Shown: positions 26,898-47,966, numbered from the stretch's first letter. The stretch: DNA of 64,000 bases from Candidatus Aldehydirespirator sp. (GCA_965205155.1 OZ242033.1:84688-148687), one strand, 5' to 3'. Notes: generated by a model from the sequence alone, not told the origin. A program made the numbers and translations.

Positions 26898-28004
26898 TCA
26901 CGCGTCCTCGGGGTCGAGCGATGGCGCCACCGGCAGGCGCTCAGCGATCGACTGCTTGAGCGCGAACAGGGTGCTCATGCTGCGGAGAATACTTGTGCCG
27001 CTGGCCCAGGGCTGCCGGTCGGTGCCGACGCACTGCAACAGGTCGGCCCGGGTGGCCAGGTAGGACTGGGGCGACAGCGGGTACTGGAGAGGCAGCTCCA
27101 GCGCGCTGCCCCTGGGCTCGTGGGGCCCGTAGCGCAGGGTGGCCCTCAGCATGCGGGAGGGGCCGGGGAGCTCCTGGTCCTGGAGGCCGTCGGCGCTGGC
27201 GTGCTCCCCCACCGCGATGAACTCGAACTGGCGGCGGTGCCGGGTGGCGAAGTCGAAGTGGATGGTGCCGTTGGCTCCACTGGCGAACTCCATCGAGGCC
27301 GACAGCACCGACCCGATGCCGTCCACCCGGCGCGACCAGTTGCCGTAGATCTGCTCGGGCGCCTCGCCGTACCACGACTGGAGCACGTCGACGGCGTGCA
27401 CGCACACATCGTGGACCGCGTCGAAGGCGTTGGTGTGCTGGCGGCCCAGCGCCGAGTGGTAGTTGATGCTGGCCGAGATCATCGGGCCGAGAGCTCCGTG
27501 GTGGATGAGGGCGCGGCACCCGTAGAAGGCGGGGGCGAAGCGGGTGTTGAAGTCGACGCCGAACTTGATGCCGCCGGCCCGGGCCTGCCTGACCATCTCC
27601 AGGCACTGCGGCCAGGTCTCGGCCACCGGCTTGGCGATGAGCACATGGATCCCCCGCCGGGCCGCCTCGGTCACGATCTCGACCCGCAGGGGCGACAGGC
27701 CGACGTCCCAGCGGATGTTGATGTCGATCACGTCGGGCTCGACCGCGTCGAGCATCGACCGGTAGTCGTCGAAGACCTGCTCCACGCCCCACAGCTCGCG
27801 GATGGCCTCCTGCGCGACGGGATCGGGATCCACCGCGGCCACCGGCTGGAGGCCGACGGCGCGATAGGCCGGCATGACGCCGCTGTGCACGATGCGGCCC
27901 GCGCCCACCAGTCCGATGCGGATGTCGGTGGGAATGTCGTCCTTCAGCGGCGGCGGTACCAGATCCAGGGCCAGGATCTCGTTCAGGTCGAGGGGAGCGA
28001 TCAC
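26898..28004 (-). CDS. Gfo/Idh/MocA family oxidoreductase
   Basis: IGLVGAG, HVLIAKP (AKP instead of EKP) and DVCVH. Confidence 0.8.
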   Translation of the reverse strand: MIAPLDLNEILALDLVPPPLKDDIPTDIRIGLVGAGRIVHSGVMPAYRAVGLQPVAAVDPDPVAQEAIRELWGVEQVFDDYRSMLDAVEPDVIDINIRWDVGLSPLRVEIVTEAARRGIHVLIAKPVAETWPQCLEMVRQARAGGIKFGVDFNTRFAPAFYGCRALIHHGALGPMISASINYHSALGRQHTNAFDAVHDVCVHAVDVLQSWYGEAPEQIYGNWSRRVDGIGSVLSASMEFASGANGTIHFDFATRHRRQFEFIAVGEHASADGLQDQELPGPSRMLRATLRYGPHEPRGSALELPLQYPLSPQSYLATRADLLQCVGTDRQPWASGTSILRSMSTLFALKQSIAERLPVAPSLDPEDA

Positions 28005-39811: not shown

Positions 39812-40438
39812 ATGGTGCTCCTGCGGGTGGTCGGGCTGCTGCTGGGGGGCGAGGTCTCGGTGATCGCCAGCCCCTCGCTGCGCCAGAAGCTTCCCAGCAG
39901 CGCGGTCACGTCGTTCCCCTGGCACCAGGACAGCCACTACTTCGATCAGACCGAAGTGGGGAGGATGGAGAAGCACACCGAGGACCTGCACATGGTGTCC
40001 GTGTGGGTGCCGCTGGTGCCGGCCACGGTGGAGAACGGGTGCTGCTGGGTGATCCCGGGCAGCCACCGTTGGGGCCTGCTGGATGCGATGCGGGGCGAGG
40101 ACCGCAACGTCCGGATGAGCGAGGACGTCGAGGCCCGGGGCACGCCGGTGCCGGTACCGGTGAAGGTGGGCGGGGCCTTCTTCTTCACCAACCTCACCGT
40201 CCACGCCAGCAAGCAGAACACCACCCCGCACTGCCGCTGGAGCGTCGACTTCCGCTACATGCCCACCCCGTCCAGCCCCGTTCTGGACGACAGAGTGCGT
40301 ATGCAGGCAGAGTTCGTGGCGAACGGCTGCCTCTCCGCCGGTGACGTCCCGTTCGCGGTGCTGCCCGAGGCGGCCCGGCCCACATGGCCGCAGTGGGAGG
40401 CCACCGTCAGCGAGCACCGAGCGAGCATGATGGCGTGA
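39812..40438 (+). CDS. PhyH-family dioxygenase, apparently N-terminally truncated
   Basis: PWHQD, ENGCCWVIPGSH and VHASKQN...RWSVDFRY; lacks the usual N-terminal segment. Confidence 0.7.
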   Translation: MVLLRVVGLLLGGEVSVIASPSLRQKLPSSAVTSFPWHQDSHYFDQTEVGRMEKHTEDLHMVSVWVPLVPATVENGCCWVIPGSHRWGLLDAMRGEDRNVRMSEDVEARGTPVPVPVKVGGAFFFTNLTVHASKQNTTPHCRWSVDFRYMPTPSSPVLDDRVRMQAEFVANGCLSAGDVPFAVLPEAARPTWPQWEATVSEHRASMMA

Positions 40439-40575
40439 GGGCTCTGTCAGGGCTCTGTCGGGTCGGCGACGAATGGGACCACTCCCGCCGCCCGATCCTG
40501 TCGCCAACCTGAAAATCCACCCTCGTCATAGTTTTTTGGGTTGTTTCATGATTCGCAGCCCACTATGTTGTGATC

Positions 40576-41037
40576 ATGGACGGATCGCTGCTGCAACTCG
40601 TGCTGGCTGTCTTCACAGCCATGCTGCTGCAGACGTGGTACCTCCAGCGCGAGATCCGCAGATCGCGCGAGGAGTCGATGCGCCATACCGACCGGTCCTT
40701 CGACCGGCTGAGTGTGAGCCACGACCAACTCCGGACGGGCTTCCAGCGGAGCCACGACCAACTGCGGACCGACTTCGAGAAGAACCACGACCAACTCCGG
40801 ACGGACTTCCAGCGGAGCCACGACCAACTGCGGACCGACTTCGAGAAGAACCACGACCAGCTGCGGGCCGACTTCGCCGAGCACAAGGACATCACCGAGC
40901 GCAACCACCGCGAGACTCGGCGTCAGCTGACCAACCTCGCTGCGGGCCTAGGCGACGCCCGGGAGCGGCTGGCCCGCATCGAGGGCTACCTCCGCATCGG
41001 CCTGCCCGAACCACCCGAGGCCGCAGCCAGCGGATGA
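40576..41037 (+). CDS. Small membrane-anchored coiled-coil protein with 11-aa repeats
   Basis: N-terminal [10 protein letters not shown](QRS/EKN) x5, C-terminal [10 protein letters not shown]; leaderless start. Confidence 0.7.
40720..40884 (+). repeat. 33-bp x5 repeat with 66-bp higher-order period
   Basis: Units 2 and 4 are identical; units 1 and 3 differ by one base. Confidence 0.9.
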
Positions 41038-41077
41038 GCAGACGCAGGCTATACACCTAGATGTGTGTGATGGTGTG

Positions 41078-41260
41078 GTGAGTCGGACCAACATCGACAT
41101 CGACGACGAGCTTGTGGAACGGGCCATGCGAGCGTTCGGCTTGCGCACCAAGCGCCAGGCGGTGCATCTCGCTCTGGAGCGCCTGCTGGGCGGGGGGCCG
41201 ATGAGCCCAGAACTGACGGCTCGGCCTCCTAGGGCTGCCAGAGGAGGGTGTCGGGCATGA
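41078..41260 (+). CDS. VapB-type antitoxin with no adjacent toxin; C-terminus probably degraded
   Basis: [35 protein letters not shown] is typical of actinobacterial VapB. Confidence 0.7.
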
Positions 41261-42800
41261 ACTGGCTCCAGGCGAACCAGAACGCTTGATGGCCCTCGAT
41301 CTCGTTGCCGGCTGAGTCGACGGCCCGCACGCCGCCGCCGTCGAGGCGAAGCGTCACCCCGGCGAGCTCGACGTCCCGGCCGGACTTGAGGGCGGCCGCG
41401 GCGGAGGCGACCGGGAAGGCCACCGGAGTGCCGTCGTCCAGGACCACGCCGAAGACCTGGTCGTGGACGCCGAGGGTGTCGTCGGCGTCGCCGATCGGGA
41501 AGATGGGCCCGTCGTCGTCGCGGCCCCGCAGCGGGTCGAGCGGGTAGCTGCGGCCGATCCCGCCGTCCTCGGCGAGGATCGTCGTGTCCGGATGGGCCGC
41601 CTTCCACTCGCCCCAGGTGGTGGTCACCACGGTGGCCTGGTTGAGGACGACCCCCTGCTCGCGCAGCGGCCCGGTGACGGCCTCGCCGGTGAACGTGTCG
41701 AACACCGACTTGGTGACCAGGTCGTACATGACCTTGTTGGACCGTGACAGCAGGCCCGAGGTGCGCAGCACCGGCTGGGCCACGCCGTCGGGCACGTCGT
41801 CGGTGAAGTAGGCCTGGGCCGAGCCGCACAGCGTGCAGTAGGGCATGCCGATCCGCCGGCCGCCGAGGGTGTCGTTGATCATCTCGTGGACTTCCATCAT
41901 GTGGCGGGGGTAGGCCCGGGCCTCGCCGTTGATGACGACCGCGAAGACGATGCCGTCGTCGGAGTACCAGGAGCCGCCGGCTGCGTCGGTGACGGCGGGA
42001 TCGTCCAGCGCGGGGATGCAGCCCCGGGGGCAGCCCAGCTGGTCGCCGAGCTCGCGGTCGTCGATGTACACGCCGCCCCAGCTCACGAAACGCCAGTCGA
42101 TGGTGGCGTCGGGGTCGTCGAAGAACGGCTGCCAGCGGGGCTCGACCAGCGTGAGCAGGCGTCCCTTGTACTCGGCGTAGCGGGGGAAGGCGGGGAGGTC
42201 CCATGCGATCAGGTGGTCGGTGACCGACTGCCACGAGCTGCGCTCGGCCACGGGGTCGTCGGCCACCCTGACGCCGGTCAGCTTCTCGAACCCGGAGACC
42301 GACCCGTCGTGGATGTCGCCGAAGTAGAAGAACCGGAGCAGGTCGGACATGATCCAGGCCAGCCGTGCGTCGCCGGTGTTGCCGAGGCCTGCGACCAGGG
42401 CACCGTCGAACCCGCCCAGTTCGAGCCCGGCCCAGATGACCTCGAGGATGTCGACCGCGGCCTGGTCGATGGGGCCGGTGGGGGTGGCCGGGGCGGGCGG
42501 GAACTCGTAGCCCAGGAAGTTGCGCAGGACGCCGCGCTCGCGAGGGTCGAGCGGGGCCGGGTCGGCGGCAGGCTCGGCTGTGGCTGTGTCGGCGTCCGCC
42601 TCGGGGGCGGCGTCCGGAGTCTCTGCATCGGAGGCCTCGCTCGCCGGTGTGGCGGCATCCGCAGTGTCGTTCTCGGTTGTCGCGGCTGGGGCCGCGGCAC
42701 TGCCCGTGAACGCGGTCGCATCCATGTCGTCACCCGAACACGCGGCGGCAACGAGCGCGAGTACCGCCAGCAGGACGCGGACACGAATCCGGGGAGTCAC
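41229..42800 (-). CDS. DUF3179 domain lipoprotein
   Basis: Lipobox [31 protein letters not shown]; leaderless GTG after TAGCGT. Confidence 0.8.
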
Positions 42801-42836
42801 GTCACCACGCTAGGCCCGGTTCCGCTGGAGGCTCGG

Positions 42837-44519
42837 TCAGGCGGCTCGTTCCAGGCGGCAGTAGCACGACGACTCGATCGGCACGTCGGCCCGGGCCTGG
42901 GCCACGTCGAGGCGCTGCTTGATGTGGTTGGCCTCGACGGTCTCGCCCCGGCGGGTCAGGCACTCGTGGAGCCCGTGCAGGCTCCACACGTTGTCGGGAT
43001 GCCAGCAGGCCCGCCGCAGCCAGCCGTCGAGGCCCAGGTCGGCCCGGTAGGCGGCCTCGGCCTCGTCCAGGCGGCCCTGCTCCATCAGCAGCGCGCCCAG
43101 GGCGTGGCGGGTGGGCTGCATCCAGCCCCACGGCTCGTCGTAGGGCAGGTTGTCGTCGAGCTCGACGGCCCGGCCGAGATGCTCGAACGCGGCGTCGAAG
43201 TTTCCCCTCCGGTACTCGACCTCGCCGGTCATCATGGCCTCGGCCACGGCCAGGATGTCGAGGCAGCTGTTGTTGAACAGCATCCGGCTCTCGGGCACCC
43301 GGTCCCGGGCGGCCGCGAACGCCGCGGCCTCCTGCTCGGCCTCGTCGACCCGCTCGGTGGAGGCGTAGGCCACCGCCCGGGCGTAGTGCATCATGGCGGT
43401 GGTGACGCAGTAGAGGTCGGCGTCGTCGGGGAACGGCTGGTCGAGGATCTCCTGCCACTTCCCGAAGCGGATCAGCACGTGCTGCTTGACGGGCACGAAG
43501 CCCTCCAGCCAGTCGGCCAGCGGCGCGTCGTCGGGGCCGAGAAGCCCGGCGGGCAGGGTGGCGACCATCTCGGTGGCCGCTTCGGCGGCCGGGCCGTACT
43601 GGCCCAGGAACATCGCCCCGTACGCCTTGAAGTGGTAGTTGTGGCAGCGGTACAGGGTGTAGAAGTTCGCCGGGCCCTCCCGCTCCAGGTAGCTGCGGTC
43701 GGCCACGACCGCCGCGTGGTTTCGGGCCACCACGTTCTGGTAGTGGCCGCAGAGCACGTCGATGTGGGTCGGCATGTGGACCAGGTGCCCGGCGTCGGGG
43801 AGCAGGTCGACCAGCGTGTCGCCGGCCTTGAGGGCCCGTTCGGGGTGGGGCGACATCTCCATGAGGTGGATGTACATGTGCAGCAGGCCGGGATGCTGGT
43901 TGGCGCCCTCGGCGTCGAGGTCCCGGAAGGCGGCTTCGAGGACCTCGGTGGCCTCGACCGTGCCGGCGCCGTCGGCCGGTTCGCCGGTGACCAGGTCCCA
44001 CAGCGCCCAGGGGGTGCGGTTCATGACGGCCTCGGCGAACAGGGCGCACACGTCGAGGTCGTCGGGATGATCCTGGTGGACGGCCCGCATGGCGTCGGCG
44101 TAGGCGTCGTTCCAGGAGCAGAATTCGTCGGACCCGGAGGGCTCGCCGGGGCCGGCCGGGTAGCGCTCGGCCAACGCGCCGATCAGGGCCTGCTCGACGG
44201 GGGTGGTCCCGGCGGCGGCACCGGCGGCCGCGGCGCAGGAGGCCCGGGCCAGCTCGAGCGATTGGGACAGGTCGTCCTCGTCGAAGTCCTCCCAGGGCTT
44301 GTTGTAGTTGGGGCCGATGGCGTAGGCGATGCCCCAGTGGGCCATGGCCAGGTCGGGGTCGCAGTCGAGGGCCTGCTCGAAGCAGGCGATGGCCTCGTCG
44401 TGGTTGAAGCCGTAGCACCAGGCCATCCCCCGGTCGAACCAGGTCTGGGCCTCGGGATTCGCGGCCGTGACTGGCCAGGTGTATGACCCGAGGTCGTAGT
44501 ACGCGTTGTCTCCGTGCAC
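42837..44519 (-). CDS. Conserved TPR-repeat protein
   Basis: AQTWFDRGMAWCYGFNHDEAIACF, HMYIH, HLVHMPTHI and PYDEPWGW; helical repeats. Confidence 0.75.
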   Translation of the reverse strand: MHGDNAYYDLGSYTWPVTAANPEAQTWFDRGMAWCYGFNHDEAIACFEQALDCDPDLAMAHWGIAYAIGPNYNKPWEDFDEDDLSQSLELARASCAAAAGAAAGTTPVEQALIGALAERYPAGPGEPSGSDEFCSWNDAYADAMRAVHQDHPDDLDVCALFAEAVMNRTPWALWDLVTGEPADGAGTVEATEVLEAAFRDLDAEGANQHPGLLHMYIHLMEMSPHPERALKAGDTLVDLLPDAGHLVHMPTHIDVLCGHYQNVVARNHAAVVADRSYLEREGPANFYTLYRCHNYHFKAYGAMFLGQYGPAAEAATEMVATLPAGLLGPDDAPLADWLEGFVPVKQHVLIRFGKWQEILDQPFPDDADLYCVTTAMMHYARAVAYASTERVDEAEQEAAAFAAARDRVPESRMLFNNSCLDILAVAEAMMTGEVEYRRGNFDAAFEHLGRAVELDDNLPYDEPWGWMQPTRHALGALLMEQGRLDEAEAAYRADLGLDGWLRRACWHPDNVWSLHGLHECLTRRGETVEANHIKQRLDVAQARADVPIESSCYCRLERAA

Positions 44520-44589
44520 TGGATCTCAGCCTCCGAGGGTCGTGTGATGTGCCCTCGAACGTACTACCTCGACGGCCGGCCGGCCGGGG

Positions 44590-45039
44590 CTAGGCGGCGT
44601 CGCTGTCGCTCTCGTCGGACGCTGCGGGCGCCTGCGGATGGAGGCCGATCCCGAGGTGACCCTCGACGCGGGCCAGCCGATCGCTGACGCCGCTCAGCCG
44701 ATCGCTGATGCGGGCCAGCCGATCGCTGAGGTCGGCGAAGCCTGCCTCGAGCCGGTCGAGCCGCTTCTGGGTGGCCTTGTGTTGAAGCTCAGAGATCTCG
44801 TGGTTGCGCTCGATGACACTCATGAGTTCAGCGAAGCGGGAGTCCAGACGCTCGTTGAATTCCAGTCGCAGCGCGCCCATGGCCTTCTCGATCTGCAGGG
44901 CGACGTAGTCACGAGTTTGCTGGCTCTCGCGGTGCTGGACCCGTATCGACACGACCAGGAGGGTGGTCATCGTGGCGAACATCACCCCGAACGCGGACCC
45001 GAGGACCAGCAGCACAGTGGTCGCGGTCGTCGGGTCCAT
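44590..45039 (-). CDS. Small membrane-anchored coiled-coil protein
   Basis: TM, then QHRES, SDRLA/SDRLS heptads (21-bp repeat at about 44668-44730), then DRLARVEGHLGIG. Confidence 0.7.
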   Translation of the reverse strand: MDPTTATTVLLVLGSAFGVMFATMTTLLVVSIRVQHRESQQTRDYVALQIEKAMGALRLEFNERLDSRFAELMSVIERNHEISELQHKATQKRLDRLEAGFADLSDRLARISDRLSGVSDRLARVEGHLGIGLHPQAPAASDESDSDAA

Positions 45040-45110
45040 GCTCCGACCCTAGCTCACCCTCCTGAGCGGAGCAACCTTCAATTACATGAAAAGATATTAG
45101 AGTTGGGATA

Positions 45111-46256
45111 TTAGAGTCTGGTCACGACCTCGGCGAAGGGGACCACTTCGGCTTGGGCGGTCTCGATTTCGCCTTCGGGGAGCATGAAGCGCCAGTAGAC
45201 GATGCCGAAGGGCCGGCCCTCGGTGTCGAGCCAGTTGGGCACGCCGGGGTCGGTGTGGGCGATGACCGCGGTGAAGCGGCCGTCGGCGTCGGCGACGGTC
45301 TGGGCCCGGTTGAGCGAGATCGACCTCGACGCGTAGTCGAAGGTCTGCAGATGGCGGTTCCACAGGCAGACGTTGCCGTAGCGGCACTTCGGCCAGCGGG
45401 CCCGGATGACCAGCGCCTCGTCGGGGCCGATCAGGAACGGGGCCATGGCGTAGGCGGCGTCGAAGGCGGCCAGGCCCAGGTCGCCGGGCCGGTCCGGCAC
45501 CGGGAACACGTTCGGCACCCGCGAGACCCATGTGCGGGCCTGGTCGCTGGCCATGGGCGGGCGGTCGACGGTGAGCTCGCGCACCAGGCCGGCGACCCGG
45601 CCGATGCCGGCGGCCACGGAGTCGTCGGACGGGCGGGGCGGTGGCGTGCTGACCGGGTTGCCGTCGCCGTCGATCACCTGGATGCGCATGACGGGGACCC
45701 GGGCCGGGTCGGCGGCCGCGTAGGTGGGGTTCTCGAAGTAGTGGCGGGTGCTGATCGAGCCGGAGCGCTCGGGCAGGGCCAGCCAGTTGCGGGGGCGGGG
45801 CTCGCCGCCGAGCTGGATCTCGAAGCGGCCGCCGGCGTCGACGTCGAACGACTCGTCGTTGAGCACCCCGACGGTCTGGTTGCTCATCGACCCCCAGGCC
45901 TCGCCGGACTCGACGGTAATCGACACGTAGGCCGCGCCCTTGGTCTCGCCGCTGACCCGGTAGACGTGGCCGGCCGACACGGGGGCGTCGAAGTAGACGG
46001 CGTCGGGGTTGTCGCCCAGGACCTTGCGGTCGGGGTCGACGATGCGATGGAACCGGGGGGCAGCCGGGTCGCGCTCGAACAGCCCGACCAGTCCCCATTG
46101 CAGCATGTGCATGAGGGCCCGGTGGGCGCCGACGATGTCGTCGTCGGTGTGGAGGTTCCACTCGGGCGACGCCCAGCGGCGGTCGACCTCGCCGAGGAGG
46201 TCGATCAGCTCGTGCAGCGCCCGGCGGGATGCCGTGTCGTTGGGCTGGTCACTCAC
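45111..46256 (-). CDS. DUF1214 domain protein
   Basis: GDNPDAVY, NWLALP, WNRHLQTFDY, HTDPGVPNWLDTEG and YWRFM; adjacent to a sulfotransferase gene. Confidence 0.75.
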   Translation of the reverse strand: MSDQPNDTASRRALHELIDLLGEVDRRWASPEWNLHTDDDIVGAHRALMHMLQWGLVGLFERDPAAPRFHRIVDPDRKVLGDNPDAVYFDAPVSAGHVYRVSGETKGAAYVSITVESGEAWGSMSNQTVGVLNDESFDVDAGGRFEIQLGGEPRPRNWLALPERSGSISTRHYFENPTYAAADPARVPVMRIQVIDGDGNPVSTPPPRPSDDSVAAGIGRVAGLVRELTVDRPPMASDQARTWVSRVPNVFPVPDRPGDLGLAAFDAAYAMAPFLIGPDEALVIRARWPKCRYGNVCLWNRHLQTFDYASRSISLNRAQTVADADGRFTAVIAHTDPGVPNWLDTEGRPFGIVYWRFMLPEGEIETAQAEVVPFAEVVTRL

Positions 46257-47499
46257 CGGCCACCCCGTAGTGGTCGATGTAGGGGGCCAGGGCGGCCCGG
46301 AGCGACTCGGCGGTGAAGCCCCAGTCCTCGGGCTGGTAGCGGTGCACGCCGAACTTGCCCTTGGGCTTGCGGGCCAGGTAGTCGAGCACGGCGTCGGCGT
46401 GGTCGTCGGTGAAGTCGCGGCCCATCTGGGCGTAGGCGGATCGCAGGGTGGCCACCGGGTCGCTCATCAGCTGGGCGAAGTGCACGTCCACGAACCGGTC
46501 GGCGGGCACGGCGCCCGAGGCCCGCACGTCGATCGAGCCGTTGAGGCCGGCGGCGAAGACGGCCAGGATGACCTCGGCCATGCCGTCGACGTCGACGTGG
46601 TCGGTGCGCAGCCACTGGATCATGGCGGTGGTGCTCACGGTGGACGGCATGGTCTTCACCGGGTCGCGGTGGGTCTGCACCACCCAGGCGTCGCCGAACT
46701 CGGCGTACAGAAGCGGCAGCAGCATGAGGTGGCCGGGGGTCTTGAGCACCCATTGGGTGGGGCCGGCGGCGTGCTGGAGCACCTGGAGGAACTGCCGCTC
46801 GTAGGCGTAGTTGACGGCCGGGTCGGGCAGCCAGGAGTCGAGCGAGGCGATCATGCTCCAGTGGAAGCCGCAGAAGCTGCCCTGGGTGATGGTGACGCAC
46901 TCGACGGGCAGGTCGGAGCGCAGCTCGTGGAGGGCCTGGAACTCGGGTTGGACGTCGGCCCAGAACTCCTGCTCGCATTCGCTGAGCACGAGCGGCTCGG
47001 GCAGGTCGGCGGCTTCGGGCAGGGGCACGGGGTGGAGGGCCTCGGCGGCGGTGGGGGGCCGCAGATCGGGGTCGAGGGCGAGCAGCTCGAAGAGGATGGT
47101 GGTGCCGGAGCGGGCCGGGCCGGTGACGACCACCGGGGCGGGCACGGGCTGGCGGGTGATCTCGGGGGCGGCGTCGATGGCCGCGGTGAGCAGCAGCCGG
47201 GCCCGCAGCGAGCGCAGCAGCTCCTGCTTGGTGATCAGCCGGCCGACGACGTGCATGGGCGCGGCGTCGATGGCGGTGGCGAGGGCTTCGAAGCGCTCCT
47301 GCCAGAGGGGGTCGCCGAGGTCGCCGGCGGGCAGGCCGCCGAGGCCGGCGGTGGCGGTGTCGAGGAGGTCGCCGGCGTCGATGGGCACGAGGTCGCGGGG
47401 GTGGCCGCCGACGGAGCCGGCCATGAGGTTGACGCGCCGCACCCAGTCGGGCCGGACGAGCCGCTCGGTCATGGGCGCGAGCTTCGAGGACATACTCAT
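46249..47499 (-). CDS. Sulfotransferase (Sulfotransfer_3 family)
   Basis: PAPS-binding GPARSGTT, WVLKTPGH and THRDP. Confidence 0.88.
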   Translation of the reverse strand: MSMSSKLAPMTERLVRPDWVRRVNLMAGSVGGHPRDLVPIDAGDLLDTATAGLGGLPAGDLGDPLWQERFEALATAIDAAPMHVVGRLITKQELLRSLRARLLLTAAIDAAPEITRQPVPAPVVVTGPARSGTTILFELLALDPDLRPPTAAEALHPVPLPEAADLPEPLVLSECEQEFWADVQPEFQALHELRSDLPVECVTITQGSFCGFHWSMIASLDSWLPDPAVNYAYERQFLQVLQHAAGPTQWVLKTPGHLMLLPLLYAEFGDAWVVQTHRDPVKTMPSTVSTTAMIQWLRTDHVDVDGMAEVILAVFAAGLNGSIDVRASGAVPADRFVDVHFAQLMSDPVATLRSAYAQMGRDFTDDHADAVLDYLARKPKGKFGVHRYQPEDWGFTAESLRAALAPYIDHYGVAGE

Positions 47500-47640
47500 A
47501 TCGGCGCGTCAACGTAGCAGGACCGGGTATCGGGCCAACCAGGGGTGCAACGAGGCGCCGGGGAGACTCGCGCCGGATCCTTGATGATTTTCATTGATTA
47601 TTGAGTTGCAACATGTTCTTGGATGGCCTAAGCTCGCACC

Positions 47641-47919
47641 ATGGAAGCGGCCGACTCGCTGACCCTGGGGATGTTCGTGACGCTGGCCGCGCTGATGGTG
47701 GGGTCGATCTGGAACCAGCATCGTGAGAGCAACGCGATACGGGCCGAGACCACCCGTCAGCTCGAGAGGCTCAGCGACCATTTCGGCGAGCAGCTCAGCA
47801 AGTTGAGCGAGGACATGGTGAATGTCCGGGAGAGGCTGGCCCGCATAGAGGGACACTTGGGGTTGGTCCCGCCTCCGGCGGATGCCTCCGGCGGGGACGA
47901 CGACCGCGATTCCGGCTAG
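47641..47919 (+). CDS. Small membrane-anchored coiled-coil protein
   Basis: TM, then QHRES, then [11 protein letters not shown]; leaderless start. Confidence 0.7.
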   Translation: MEAADSLTLGMFVTLAALMVGSIWNQHRESNAIRAETTRQLERLSDHFGEQLSKLSEDMVNVRERLARIEGHLGLVPPPADASGGDDDRDSG

Positions 47920-47966
47920 GCGACGCAATACGATCTGAACTCGTTGCGAACGAACTGTCTCGAGGT

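Follow-up and report, generated by a model that had tools for sequence, protein, structure and literature searches.

A lineage-restricted family of predicted leaderless genes for membrane-anchored helical stalks in Acidimicrobiia

Introduction

Several described proteins combine a membrane anchor with an extended helix. CCDC90B, MCUR1 and DUF1640 proteins carry a membrane-anchored stalk of 11-residue repeats; in DUF1640 proteins it is accompanied by an N-terminal head domain and a C-terminal transmembrane segment (TM). The small bitopic PspB is anchored by an N-terminal TM in N-out/C-in orientation and has a short cytoplasmic helix at its C-terminus, the end of which resembles a leucine zipper. 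The helix of ATP synthase subunit b forms a parallel oligomer and has 11-residue (hendecad) character, and in Braun's lipoprotein Lpp, which is short, abundant and anchored to the membrane, a parallel helical trimer defines a distance in the envelope by its length. Among phage-associated proteins, XhlA, from prophage lysis modules, and the Rz-type i-spanins (phrog_739/4297) are small and combine a coiled coil with a single TM.

Here we analyze three genes, A, B and C, in a 64,000-nt stretch of DNA from Candidatus Aldehydirespirator sp. (GCA_965205155.1 OZ242033.1:84688-148687; hereafter the window, with positions counted from its first letter). The original prediction, made from the sequence alone, had described them as a dispersed family of three leaderless small genes for TM-coiled-coil proteins inserted between unrelated operons.

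Results

Stand-alone paralogues restricted to one lineage

Genes A, B and C (Table 1) are members of a lineage-restricted family of ~20 stand-alone paralogues. The predicted family exists but is not limited to three genes: an iterative HMM search recovered 16 members in the source genome, to which a remotely related sister subfamily adds another 3-4, giving a total of ~20 copies per genome dispersed around the chromosome. Protein identity among family members is ~25%. Copy number is 4-30 in 23 of 24 congeners, and the range of the family is one GTDB family of Acidimicrobiia (2 of the 136 genera sampled in the class). It was not found in 15 of the 16 other families of the order, with one weak match in the remaining one, and a database-wide homologue search returned 442 clusters among 1.84 billion representatives. 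Names indicate that the lineage is probably sponge-associated.

The neighbours of the family genes are unrelated metabolic or transport genes, and no recurring neighbour or partner gene was found at 19 loci. Only 8 of these 19 loci have a same-strand downstream gene, compared to a background of 68%, and the genes did not behave as operon leaders. Together with a complete promoter for each member (see below), this is in line with the predicted independent transcription, as far as it can be read from sequence.

Table 1. Positions of genes A, B and C and of their parts in the window.
Feature	Position	Strand	Description
Gene A	40576-41037	+	153 aa; ORF confirmed
Gene A TM	40585-40647	+	~residues 4-24; followed by stalk with 11-residue repeats, C-terminal motif and short tail
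Gene A in-frame tandem repeat	40716-40875	+	33 nt (11 aa) x 4.8; higher-order 66-nt unit
Gene A C-terminal motif	40960-41007	+	includes R-h-x-x-h-E as RLARIE
Gene A AT-rich upstream box	40517-40540	+	divergent version cctcgtcatagttttttggg; abuts -35; PWM score 20.8
Gene A promoter core	40541-40569	+	-35 TTGTTT 40541-40546, 17-nt spacer, -10 TATGTT 40564-40569
Gene B	44590-45039	-	149 aa; ORF confirmed
Gene B TM	45018-44947	-	~residues 8-31; followed by QHRES, stalk, C-terminal motif and acidic tail
Gene B in-frame tandem repeat	44665-44729	-	21 nt (7 aa, SDRLxxx) x 3.1
Gene B C-terminal motif	44638-44685	-	SDRLARVEGHLGIGLH; region dN/dS 0.19
Gene B AT-rich box	45075-45098	-	aatatcttttcatgtaattgaagg; PWM score 29.2
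Gene B promoter core	45046-45074	-	-35 TTGCTC 45074-45069, 17-nt spacer, -10 TAGGGT 45051-45046
Gene C	47641-47919	+	92 aa; ORF confirmed
Gene C TM	47662-47712	+	~residues 8-24; followed by NQHRES, short stalk and acidic tail
Gene C C-terminal motif	47827-47874	+	between short stalk and acidic tail
Gene C AT-rich box	47582-47605	+	tgatgattttcattgattattgag; top PWM match of the genome, score 41.5
Gene C promoter core	47606-47634	+	-35 TTGCAA 47606-47611, 17-nt spacer, -10 TAAGCT 47629-47634
Gene C presence/absence unit	47576-47953	+	box, promoter, gene and 34 nt

Comparison with described families

The family is uncharacterised and lies outside every known family checked in Pfam, NCBIfam, PHROG, PADLOC and PDB. 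The XhlA, CCDC90/DUF1640 and DUF1515 profiles, to which the original prediction had pointed, all stayed below cut-off in profile comparisons, and the family has its membrane anchor at the other end of the protein. XhlA (PF10779; cut-off 34.7 bits) matched neither A, B and C nor the 16 members at E <= 0.1-1, and it scored 13.0 bits for one sister-subfamily protein. Whereas XhlA has an N-terminal coiled coil and a C-terminal TM, the TM of the family is N-terminal. No prophage or lysis-cassette context and no phage homologue was found, and PHROG matches to Rz-type i-spanins were insignificant (E = 0.015-0.03). CCDC90-like/DUF1640 (PF07798; cut-off 33.5 bits) was the sole Pfam family that recurred weakly, scoring 14.0 bits against A and, at best, 24.6-25.9 bits against long homologues from the sister subfamily, and these matches were confined to the 11-mer repeat stalk. 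In contrast to the head-neck-stalk organization and C-terminal anchor of DUF1640 proteins, the family has an N-terminal anchor, no head, and one predicted helix followed by a disordered tail. DUF1515 was absent from the Pfam matches of A, B and C (E <= 1) and of the 16 members (E <= 0.1).

PspB resembles the family as a small bitopic protein with an N-out TM and a cytoplasmic helix. Its profile (PF06667) gave no match at E <= 0.1-1, and none of the 19 loci showed a psp context. Unlike PspB, the family is multi-copy, has no pspA or pspC nearby, and carries a variable and far longer stalk. ATP synthase subunit b shares a single N-terminal TM anchor, one long cytoplasmic helix and a similar size (80-180 aa), and its profile (PF00430) matched one of the 16 members below cut-off (E = 0.012); the PDB match had an E value of 6.3 and the neighbouring genes are unrelated. 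Moreover, the family lies outside the atp operon in ~20 dispersed copies with their own, apparently leaderless, promoter, and ends in R-h-x-x-h-E plus GxLGIG, whereas subunit b has a delta-binding domain. Lpp is a functional analogy only and shows no sequence relation: it is lipid-anchored, periplasmic, heptad-based, single-copy and without repeat-driven length variation, in contrast to the predicted cytoplasmic location of the family. Among anti-phage defence profiles (PADLOC), scattered coiled-coil matches (ZorA, JetC, LmuB) with E >= 1e-4 were obtained for one or two members. Expanded orphan families such as this one escape annotation-based comparative genomics of sponge symbionts.

Protein architecture and predicted topology

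The N-terminal TM proposed for A, B and C is real, as are the (E/D)RLAR(I/V)EG(H/Y)L motif with its Pro/acidic tail and the QHRES segment of B and C, at whose position A has a different segment. Throughout the family, the first 3-10 residues are acidic and free of K and R, followed by a TM that is conserved within each subfamily, a K/R/H-rich juxtamembrane stretch (QHRES or WHQQR) and a highly charged stalk of 29-207 residues. The stalk ends in a near-invariant R-L-A-R-I-E-G-(H/F)-L-G-I-G-x-P-P, after which a poorly constrained Pro/acidic tail is found. Repeats of 11 aa are the commonest class and 7-aa repeats also occur, both of them in-frame; expansion of the core by tandem repeats, as predicted for all three genes, applies to A and B, while C is without repeats. 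Likewise, the stalk is of variable length as proposed, but its hydrophobic periodicity of 3.6-3.67 (3.62 in the periodicity measurement) departs from the 3.5 of heptads, so that the presumed coiled coil is better read as a hendecad-type or straight amphipathic helix. Hydrophobic residues account for only 25% of the stalk, charged ones for 42%.

AlphaFold2 models consist of one helix and a disordered tail for the proteins of gene C (helix 3-73, pLDDT 80) and gene B (helix 3-128, pLDDT 83), although such models of long helices as monomers are weakly informative (pTM 0.34-0.37). Both helices stop exactly at the EGH of the C-terminal motif. The product is thus predicted to be a bitopic protein with one continuous alpha-helix; the stalk could form one stable helix, or could lie on the membrane instead of bundling. 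K and R average 0.01 before the TM compared to 3.2 within the 12 residues that follow it (n = 155, a homologue sample enriched in B-type orthologues). By the positive-inside rule, this indicates an N-out/C-in topology with a cytoplasmic stalk, in which case the rod would reach ~4-30 nm into the cytoplasm, and it speaks against the host-interaction factor that had been considered originally.

The pattern R[ILVM]xx[ILVM]E is located at the end of the helical region in 18 of 19 proteins, sister subfamily included. Its R, L, I/V and E are (near-)invariant in 223 homologues, with R and E partly forced by the selection pattern, and the 16 HMM-defined members all share R124, E126 and G127. PMC6173795, which cites Kammerer 2005, describes R-h-x-x-h-E as an experimentally validated trimerisation determinant. 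It is a short pattern and by itself no proof of a trimer.

A conserved promoter with an AT-rich box

A TANNNT hexamer ~12 nt upstream of the start codon is tied to leaderless genes in Actinobacteria (PMC3160421). The hexamers of A, B and C are where they had been predicted, exactly 6 nt before each ATG (Table 1). Across the family, TANNNT is found 6-8 nt before the start codon in 14 of the 16 members in the source genome and in 59 of 71 members from more than 20 genomes, far beyond chance: this placement is expected at 0.2% of random positions, and among candidate starts in long ORFs it occurs at a rate of 1.6%, which as background gives binomial P values of 7e-24 and 4e-94. The same 14 of 16 and 59 of 71 members agree with the actinobacterial leaderless pattern, i.e., a first T ~12 nt upstream and no Shine-Dalgarno sequence, and the two members of the source genome that deviate from this geometry have GGAG-type Shine-Dalgarno sequences. 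A cross-genome promoter survey detected a TTG -35 element at 16-18 nt spacing in 53 members. Each member carries what is, by its sequence, its own complete promoter of the housekeeping-sigma type. With just 6 nt between its -10 element and the ATG, gene A is predicted to give a leaderless mRNA, and mRNAs of other family members are likewise predicted to start at the start codon.

Directly upstream of the -35 element, most members have an AT-rich box with the consensus ATATTTTCATGyWATTGAG. The AT-rich tttcat patch noted originally before all three genes corresponds to this box in B and C; in A it falls into the -35/spacer region and is not positionally equivalent. In a genome-wide PWM search, 18 of the 26 top matches were at copies of the superfamily: 14 at the family and 4, including two secondary matches, at the sister subfamily. 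The box of gene A is retained in genomes G008 and G006, that of gene B is conserved at orthologous loci L001-L005 and L008-L011, and that of gene C in G006, G021 and G018 despite diverging flanks. Overall, promoter conservation exceeds that of the proteins. Judging from promoter quality, the consensus-like elements might confer high, constitutive or co-ordinately regulated expression; the box might just as well serve repression or silencing. Its position at -38 to -60 also fits an UP element, for which no factor is needed. With ~60 independent examples of UP-like box, -35, -10 and predicted leaderless start, the family provides an unusually well-defined native promoter for high-GC actinobacteria, with potential uses in expression work and in annotating the start codons of these MAGs.

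Selection, length variation and loss of copies

The family members are real protein-coding genes under purifying selection, with dN/dS values of 0.15-0.45 overall (B, 0.17-0.45; C, 0.15-0.38). The TM (0.16) and the C-terminal motif (0.19) are the most constrained regions, compared to 0.60 for the tail. Length variability was borne out: B orthologues range from ~130 to 258 aa via in-frame repeat changes, with a tandem-repeat copy number of 1-3, and the gene A orthologue in G006 is shorter.

Differences between species are deletions and changes in repeat number. In G008, the coding sequence of A is deleted and its promoter is joined to the last 5 codons, while C is internally deleted and its box is joined to the ERLGRIEG codons; these remnants identify presence/absence in this genome as deletion. 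The gene C unit is replaced by ~45 nt in G017 and is absent in G019. Orthologous empty or deleted sites showed no duplications or repeats, with remnants left by deletions. At least three TM-sequence types are common to both genera, indicating that the duplications are old. New copies may arise when the promoter-plus-gene unit duplicates, and copies would be lost by deletion.

Candidate roles of the stalk proteins

An abundant membrane-tethered oligomeric stalk or spacer is the most likely role that we infer. As a whole, the interpretation of the family as leaderless stand-alone genes for membrane-anchored helical stalks, probably oligomeric tethers or spacers, is tentative and falls a little short of an even chance. 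The terminal R-h-x-x-h-E would nucleate a parallel homo-oligomer, most likely a trimer, and the conserved GxLGIG-PP tip would offer an interaction surface at a paralogue-specific distance from the membrane. With high expression, the cytoplasmic side of the membrane would then be richly supplied with structural tethers, spacers or scaffolds; a role as enzyme, toxin or mobile element appears less favoured. If this is correct, one simple design, made up of an anchor, a length-adjustable rod and a conserved tip, takes up ~20 strongly promoted genes in an uncultured lineage of Acidimicrobiia that is probably associated with sponges. The design is described in no current database and would be a clean natural system for how cells use the length of a membrane-tethered helix.

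Alternatively, the stalk could be an 11/3 amphipathic helix that rests on the surface of the inner leaflet and stabilises or shapes the membrane under stress, with the FLGIGMP tip dipping back into the bilayer, comparable to the 11-mer repeats of apolipoproteins, LEA proteins or alpha-synuclein. Such a surface coat agrees with a period of 3.62-3.67 and with repeats of 11 residues, with the hydrophobic G-x-L-G-I-G-(L/M)-P tip, and with a strong promoter as expected for an abundant structural protein. The sub-threshold Apolipoprotein match of A (E = 0.0011), however, scores 19 bits against a cut-off of 90, and ~25% hydrophobic and 42% charged residues leave a narrow apolar stripe of the kind more typically found in bundled than in lipid-bound helices. 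The near-invariant R-h-x-x-h-E, a helix-helix oligomerisation determinant, also argues against a coat, which we consider unlikely. Slightly more doubtful is a regulon of PspB-like small bitopic sensors, controlled by one transcription factor through the box, in which the membrane partner sensed or bound would differ from one TM type to the next, and a single cytoplasmic effector would be recruited by the C-terminal peptide that all members have in common. Sequence specificity of the box, its conservation between paralogues of ~25% identity and across two genera, the highly constrained, subfamily-specific TMs, and the PspB-like combination of N-out TM and short cytoplasmic helix would suit these adaptors. 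But no PspB, PspC or anti-sigma profile matched, no regulator or psp-like gene is nearby, the -35 and -10 elements are of the housekeeping type with a box position that a factor-free UP element would explain as well, and twenty sensors with one output are unparsimonious.

If the topology were reversed (N-in/C-out), the proteins might serve as Lpp-like envelope spacers or as surface or host-interaction factors of a sponge symbiont. The apparent sponge association of the lineage, the variable-length repeats with a fast-evolving acidic/Pro tail, common in surface proteins, and a weak architectural likeness to Rz-type i-spanins point in this direction. Yet the charge bias around the TM is strongly opposite, neither a Sec-type n-region nor a sortase or lipobox signal or wall-binding domain was found, and the spanin matches are insignificant, making an extracytoplasmic stalk marginally less probable still than the sensor regulon. 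By far the least credible is that the genes are mini-cassettes in which promoter and gene move together, or small membrane toxins of the holin/Abi type with a phage or defence origin. In favour of this, one could cite the presence/absence unit of gene C, which extends exactly from the start of the box to 34 nt past the stop codon, the toxin-antitoxin (TA) slot adjoining gene A, and the dispersal of copies around the chromosome. The cassette had been part of the original prediction and is largely refuted: we found no TSDs, terminal inverted repeats, att sites, recurring recombinase or recombinase neighbour, and no plasmid or phage copies or homologues, with PADLOC matches representing coiled-coil noise. 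In addition, the remnants of A and C in G008 indicate deletion, B is syntenic at all 8 congeneric loci examined, the TM types shared by both genera make the duplications old, and purifying selection together with strong promoters is unlike toxins, which are kept silent.

Compared to the tether that we favour, a more specific variant is improbable to much the same degree as the extracytoplasmic stalk. Here, the proteins would be promoter-locked rulers, homo-oligomeric rods graded from ~4 to 30 nm that position a shared cytoplasmic structure by the same GxLGIG-PP tip under one dedicated box factor. Such a structure might be the nucleoid, storage granules, an internal compartment or a cytoskeletal layer, and would amount to an undescribed bacterial membrane-proximal architecture that is specific to sponge symbionts and evolves by repeat slippage. 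The simpler idea of a spacer or ruler, already contained in the original prediction, is plausible, and AlphaFold modelled the 92-aa and the 149-aa member alike as a rod without breaks.

A lineage-restricted family of small membrane proteins

The reading frames of A, B and C, three small genes of the window, agree exactly with those of the original prediction (see table), and a protein alignment bears out the layout proposed there: all three open with a hydrophobic segment at the N-terminus and continue with a basic stretch next to the membrane, a centre of variable length, and an R-L-A-R-(I/V)-E-G-(H/Y)-L motif ahead of a Pro/acidic tail. When every six-frame ORF of the 3.89-Mb genome was searched iteratively with an HMM until convergence, 16 family members emerged, compared with the three noticed originally, so that the proposed expanded family is indeed found. 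Searching the genome for the promoter type described below uncovered three further small proteins (66, 81 and 182 aa) with the MD/ME start, TM segment and helix of the family and a variant C-terminus, RLDRLEGKVDxLIxALARAG(F/L/I)P; a fourth, partial copy adjoins one of them. Profile-profile comparison links this sister subfamily to the family (hhalign probability 88%, E = 3e-6), and we refer to both together as the superfamily. Homologues of the sister subfamily contain variable numbers of 11-residue FRTENRADLQD repeats.

Positions of the small genes and their −10 elements (C1, genome coordinates; all others, window coordinates)
Feature	Position	Strand	Remark
Gene A	40576-41037	+	ORF confirmed
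Gene B	44590-45039	-	ORF confirmed
Gene C	47641-47919	+	ORF confirmed
−10 of A, TATGTT	40564-40569	+	ends 6 nt before ATG (DNA read directly)
−10 of B, TAGGGT	45051-45046	-	ends 6 nt before ATG (DNA read directly)
−10 of C, TAAGCT	47629-47634	+	ends 6 nt before ATG (DNA read directly)
Sister subfamily gene	C1:176710-177258	+	family promoter type, MD/ME start, TM
Sister subfamily gene	C1:750442-750687	+	family promoter type, MD/ME start, TM
Sister subfamily gene	C1:772612-772812	-	family promoter type, MD/ME start, TM
Sister subfamily partial copy	C1:750698-750871	+	

The family is multi-copy, selectively maintained and restricted to one lineage. Between 4 and 30 copies are found per congeneric genome (23 of 24 genomes), 15 of 16 other families of the order lack members, and the remaining one gives a single weak match. 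Among 301 evenly sampled genomes of the class, matches are limited to 2 of 136 genera, both in the GTDB family to which the window belongs; the sister subfamily is likewise restricted to this GTDB family. Searching 1.84 billion cluster representatives exhaustively with the profile gave only 442 clusters in total, and the few database names found read 'hypothetical protein [Acidimicrobiaceae bacterium]'. We found no mention of such a family in the literature on sponge Acidimicrobiia. A repetitive, eukaryote-like metagenome protein of 1072 aa (P0240) matched the profile five times through 'RLxR(V/I)EKK(V/M)GISL' (E = 3e-12); with its five 'RLxRVEKKVGISL' stretches, it probably represents a short-motif coincidence and was rejected.

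No model of Pfam, NCBIfam, PHROGs or PADLOC reached threshold for A, B, C, any of the 16 members or the sister proteins, and membership of a known family was rejected, the scans yielding sub-threshold coiled-coil noise only. The comparisons suggested originally were likewise negative: for XhlA, whose TM segment sits at the opposite end, the best score is 13 bits where 34.7 are required, CCDC90-like profiles (cut-off 33.5) reach 14 bits for A and 24.6-25.9 for long sister homologues, through the 11-mer stalk only, and DUF1515 gives no match. A PDB profile search returned nothing below E = 0.027, and a Foldseek search with the predicted model gave zero matches. We regard the family as a genuine, well-delimited orphan whose promoter grammar is unusually clear.

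A conserved leaderless-type promoter with an upstream box

Scoring as start the codon immediately ahead of the TM segment, we find TANNNT 6-8 nt before the start codon in 14 of the 16 members of this genome (P = 7e-24 against the background rate; 0.22% of positions expected, 1.6% observed at 27,403 candidate starts in long ORFs). The predicted hexamer was found at A, B and C, each with an AT-rich patch farther upstream. In Actinobacteria, a TANNNT placed some 12 nt ahead of the start codon has been linked to leaderless genes (PMC3160421); at the 6-nt spacing seen here, the first T of the −10 lies exactly 12 nt upstream. All 14 leaderless-type members also carry a −35 TTGnnn 15-18 nt upstream of the −10, the exceptions being TTATTC in one copy and, in member P1009, TTGTTT at 15 nt or GTTGTT at 17 nt. 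The composite TTGNNN-N16-18-TANNNT-N6-8-RTG occurs at only 62 sites genome-wide; 21 of these follow an AT-rich stretch of 25 nt, and among those 21 sites 15 belong to the family or the sister subfamily. We extended the comparison to 55 loci from both genera, covering more than 20 genomes; of 71 members there, 59 have the leaderless geometry and 53 a TTG −35. A generic scan for intrinsic terminators and E. coli-consensus promoters gave nothing useful; the −10 here is TANNNT, not TATAAT.

The two members of this genome without the TANNNT geometry carry GGAG-type Shine-Dalgarno sequences, and in one case the gene is the downstream partner of a tandem pair (C1:1511151-1511399 and 1511409-1511639, +), starting 9 nt past its neighbour's stop. 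Most members lacking the geometry in the 71-member set are also downstream genes of such pairs. Tandem pairs recur across species (loci L017, L018, L025, L031, L035, L036 and L049); their second gene lacks a separate promoter and follows the first stop within a few nucleotides, behind a GGAG-type Shine-Dalgarno sequence, suggesting that the family uses both leaderless and Shine-Dalgarno-led initiation.

Abutting the −35 is a conserved box with the consensus ATATTTTCATG(T/C)(A/T)ATTGAG. A position weight matrix built from 41 promoters of other genomes matches 26 sites in this genome, 18 of them at superfamily copies (14 family, 4 sister subfamily). The other eight, among them a DUF222/HNH-like ORF, a site close to a WXG100-like gene and a 76-aa ORF, were unconvincing, and a wider regulon was rejected. 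In orthologous promoters the box, −35 and −10 are kept while the spacer and flanks diverge, and the box is common to paralogues with only about 25% protein identity and is therefore under selection. It may act as an UP element or an operator. A leaderless-type promoter with a specific upstream box is conserved family-wide. High-scoring box-like promoters were also recorded at C1:1677128 (+), with leaderless geometry before an unrelated 484-aa DUF222/HNH-like ORF, and at C1:3704628 (-), near a WXG100-like (EsxA-type) small protein.

Stand-alone genes between unrelated neighbours

The window order is GntR/FCD, PhyH, A, VapB, DUF3179, TPR, B, DUF1214, sulfotransferase, C, EamA, phosphoribosyltransferase. 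As originally proposed, the neighbours are functionally unrelated, here and at other loci, and all-against-all BLAST of ORFs within ±4 kb revealed no recurrent neighbour or partner gene at 19 loci. A co-directional downstream gene is present at only 8 of the 19 loci, compared with a genome background of 68%, and a role as operon leader or promoter donor was rejected on this ground; the genes are therefore stand-alone units.

Directly after A lies an orphan VapB-type antitoxin gene (41063-41260, +; PF09957, E = 2.5e-15) without an adjacent VapC, whose DNA is 98% identical to that of congeneric genome G008, with flanking genes at about 87-90%. In G017 the A/VapB slot holds an RHH antitoxin and PIN toxin pair on the opposite strand. 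The slot looks like a hot spot of toxin-antitoxin turnover. At the PhyH stop codon begins an exact tandem duplication of 11 nt (AGGGCTCTGTC x 2; 40438-40459).

Deletions and repeat changes in the evolution of the family

B is syntenic in all eight congeneric loci examined. C is present in G006, G018, G021 and GCA_022828135; G008 retains only a remnant of it, in which the box joins straight to the ERLGRIEG codons, in G017 about 45 unrelated nt take its place, and in G019 it is absent. Since G021 and G019 are close kin, judged by B sequence and a shared extra paralogue, loss of C is the parsimonious direction. A in G008 keeps its complete promoter, fused to the last five codons of the gene. Neither target-site duplications nor terminal repeats occur at empty or deleted sites, and 50,697 phage and 72,556 plasmid records contain no homologue, which argues against the mobile mini-cassette considered originally. 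The dynamics are those of promoter-plus-gene duplication, deletion and repeat slippage, not of transposition.

The tandem-repeat-expanded, length-variable core of the original prediction is borne out by in-frame arrays of 4.8 copies of a 33-nt unit in A and 3.1 copies of a 21-nt unit in B (Tandem Repeats Finder) and by B orthologues, whose ends are near-identical while their middles range from about 130 to 258 aa by 7-residue and longer repeats. In orthologue comparisons, dN/dS lies between 0.15 and 0.38 for C and between 0.17 and 0.45 for B. Within B, constraint is tightest over the N-terminus and TM (0.16) and over the C motif (0.19), intermediate over the stalk (0.26) and almost absent from the tail (0.60). 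TM sequences are subfamily-specific, with at least three types present in both genera; the paralogues are therefore old and individually maintained. In codons 1-33 of B orthologues (44941-45039), dS is 0.20, roughly half the 0.36 seen over the remaining codons, which could reflect constraint on the leaderless mRNA 5′ end or gene conversion.

Predicted one-helix architecture and possible function

Met-Asp or Met-Glu starts are found in 70% of 223 homologues, and in most the TM begins within the first five residues. AlphaFold2 predicts a single unbroken helix for C (residues 3-73, pLDDT 79.7) and B (residues 3-128, pLDDT 83.4) that stops at the E-G-H of the motif, with a disordered tail after it; on these models, long members would be rods rather than hairpins. 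The stalk spans 29 to 207 residues, of which 25% are hydrophobic and 42% charged. Its hydrophobicity is most strongly periodic at 3.62 residues (relative power 6.5 at 3.6, 5.3 at 3.67 and 1.8 at 3.5), and the commonest repeat unit is 11 residues, indicating a hendecad-type or straight amphipathic helix and not a heptad coiled coil. The family combines a one-helix architecture and a variable stalk with an invariant terminal motif. The R-L-A-R-I-E core of this motif matches R-h-x-x-h-E in 18 of 19 proteins, at the helix end every time; according to PMC6173795, which cites Kammerer et al. 2005, mutation of R-h-x-x-h-E destabilises a bacterial trimeric coiled coil.

We are highly confident that the family is real and lineage-restricted and that its promoter, one-helix layout and mode of evolution are as described. 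Our functional model, a cytoplasmic, oligomeric, highly expressed structural tether or spacer, is tentative. K/R residues average 0.01 in the N flank versus 3.2 in the 12 residues past the TM, and by the positive-inside rule this asymmetry predicts an N-out/C-in topology, so that the stalk would point into the cytoplasm. The proteins may form a parallel oligomer, probably a trimer, at high expression, and could hold the GxLGIG-PP tip at paralogue-specific distances.

Other readings rank lower, in the order given here. The proteins might instead form a membrane-surface coat, which we consider unlikely. A regulon of adaptors controlled by the box is doubtful. An extracytoplasmic stalk, the reverse of the predicted topology, is improbable, and a mobile or toxic cassette, given the deletion sites and the phage and plasmid records, very improbable.

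Broadly, these are helical-stalk proteins with a membrane anchor. In working principle they come closest to ATP synthase subunit b and PspB, whose helical stalks are likewise anchored at the N-terminus; this is an analogy, not a relationship. Again by analogy only, Lpp stands for the idea that length sets distance.
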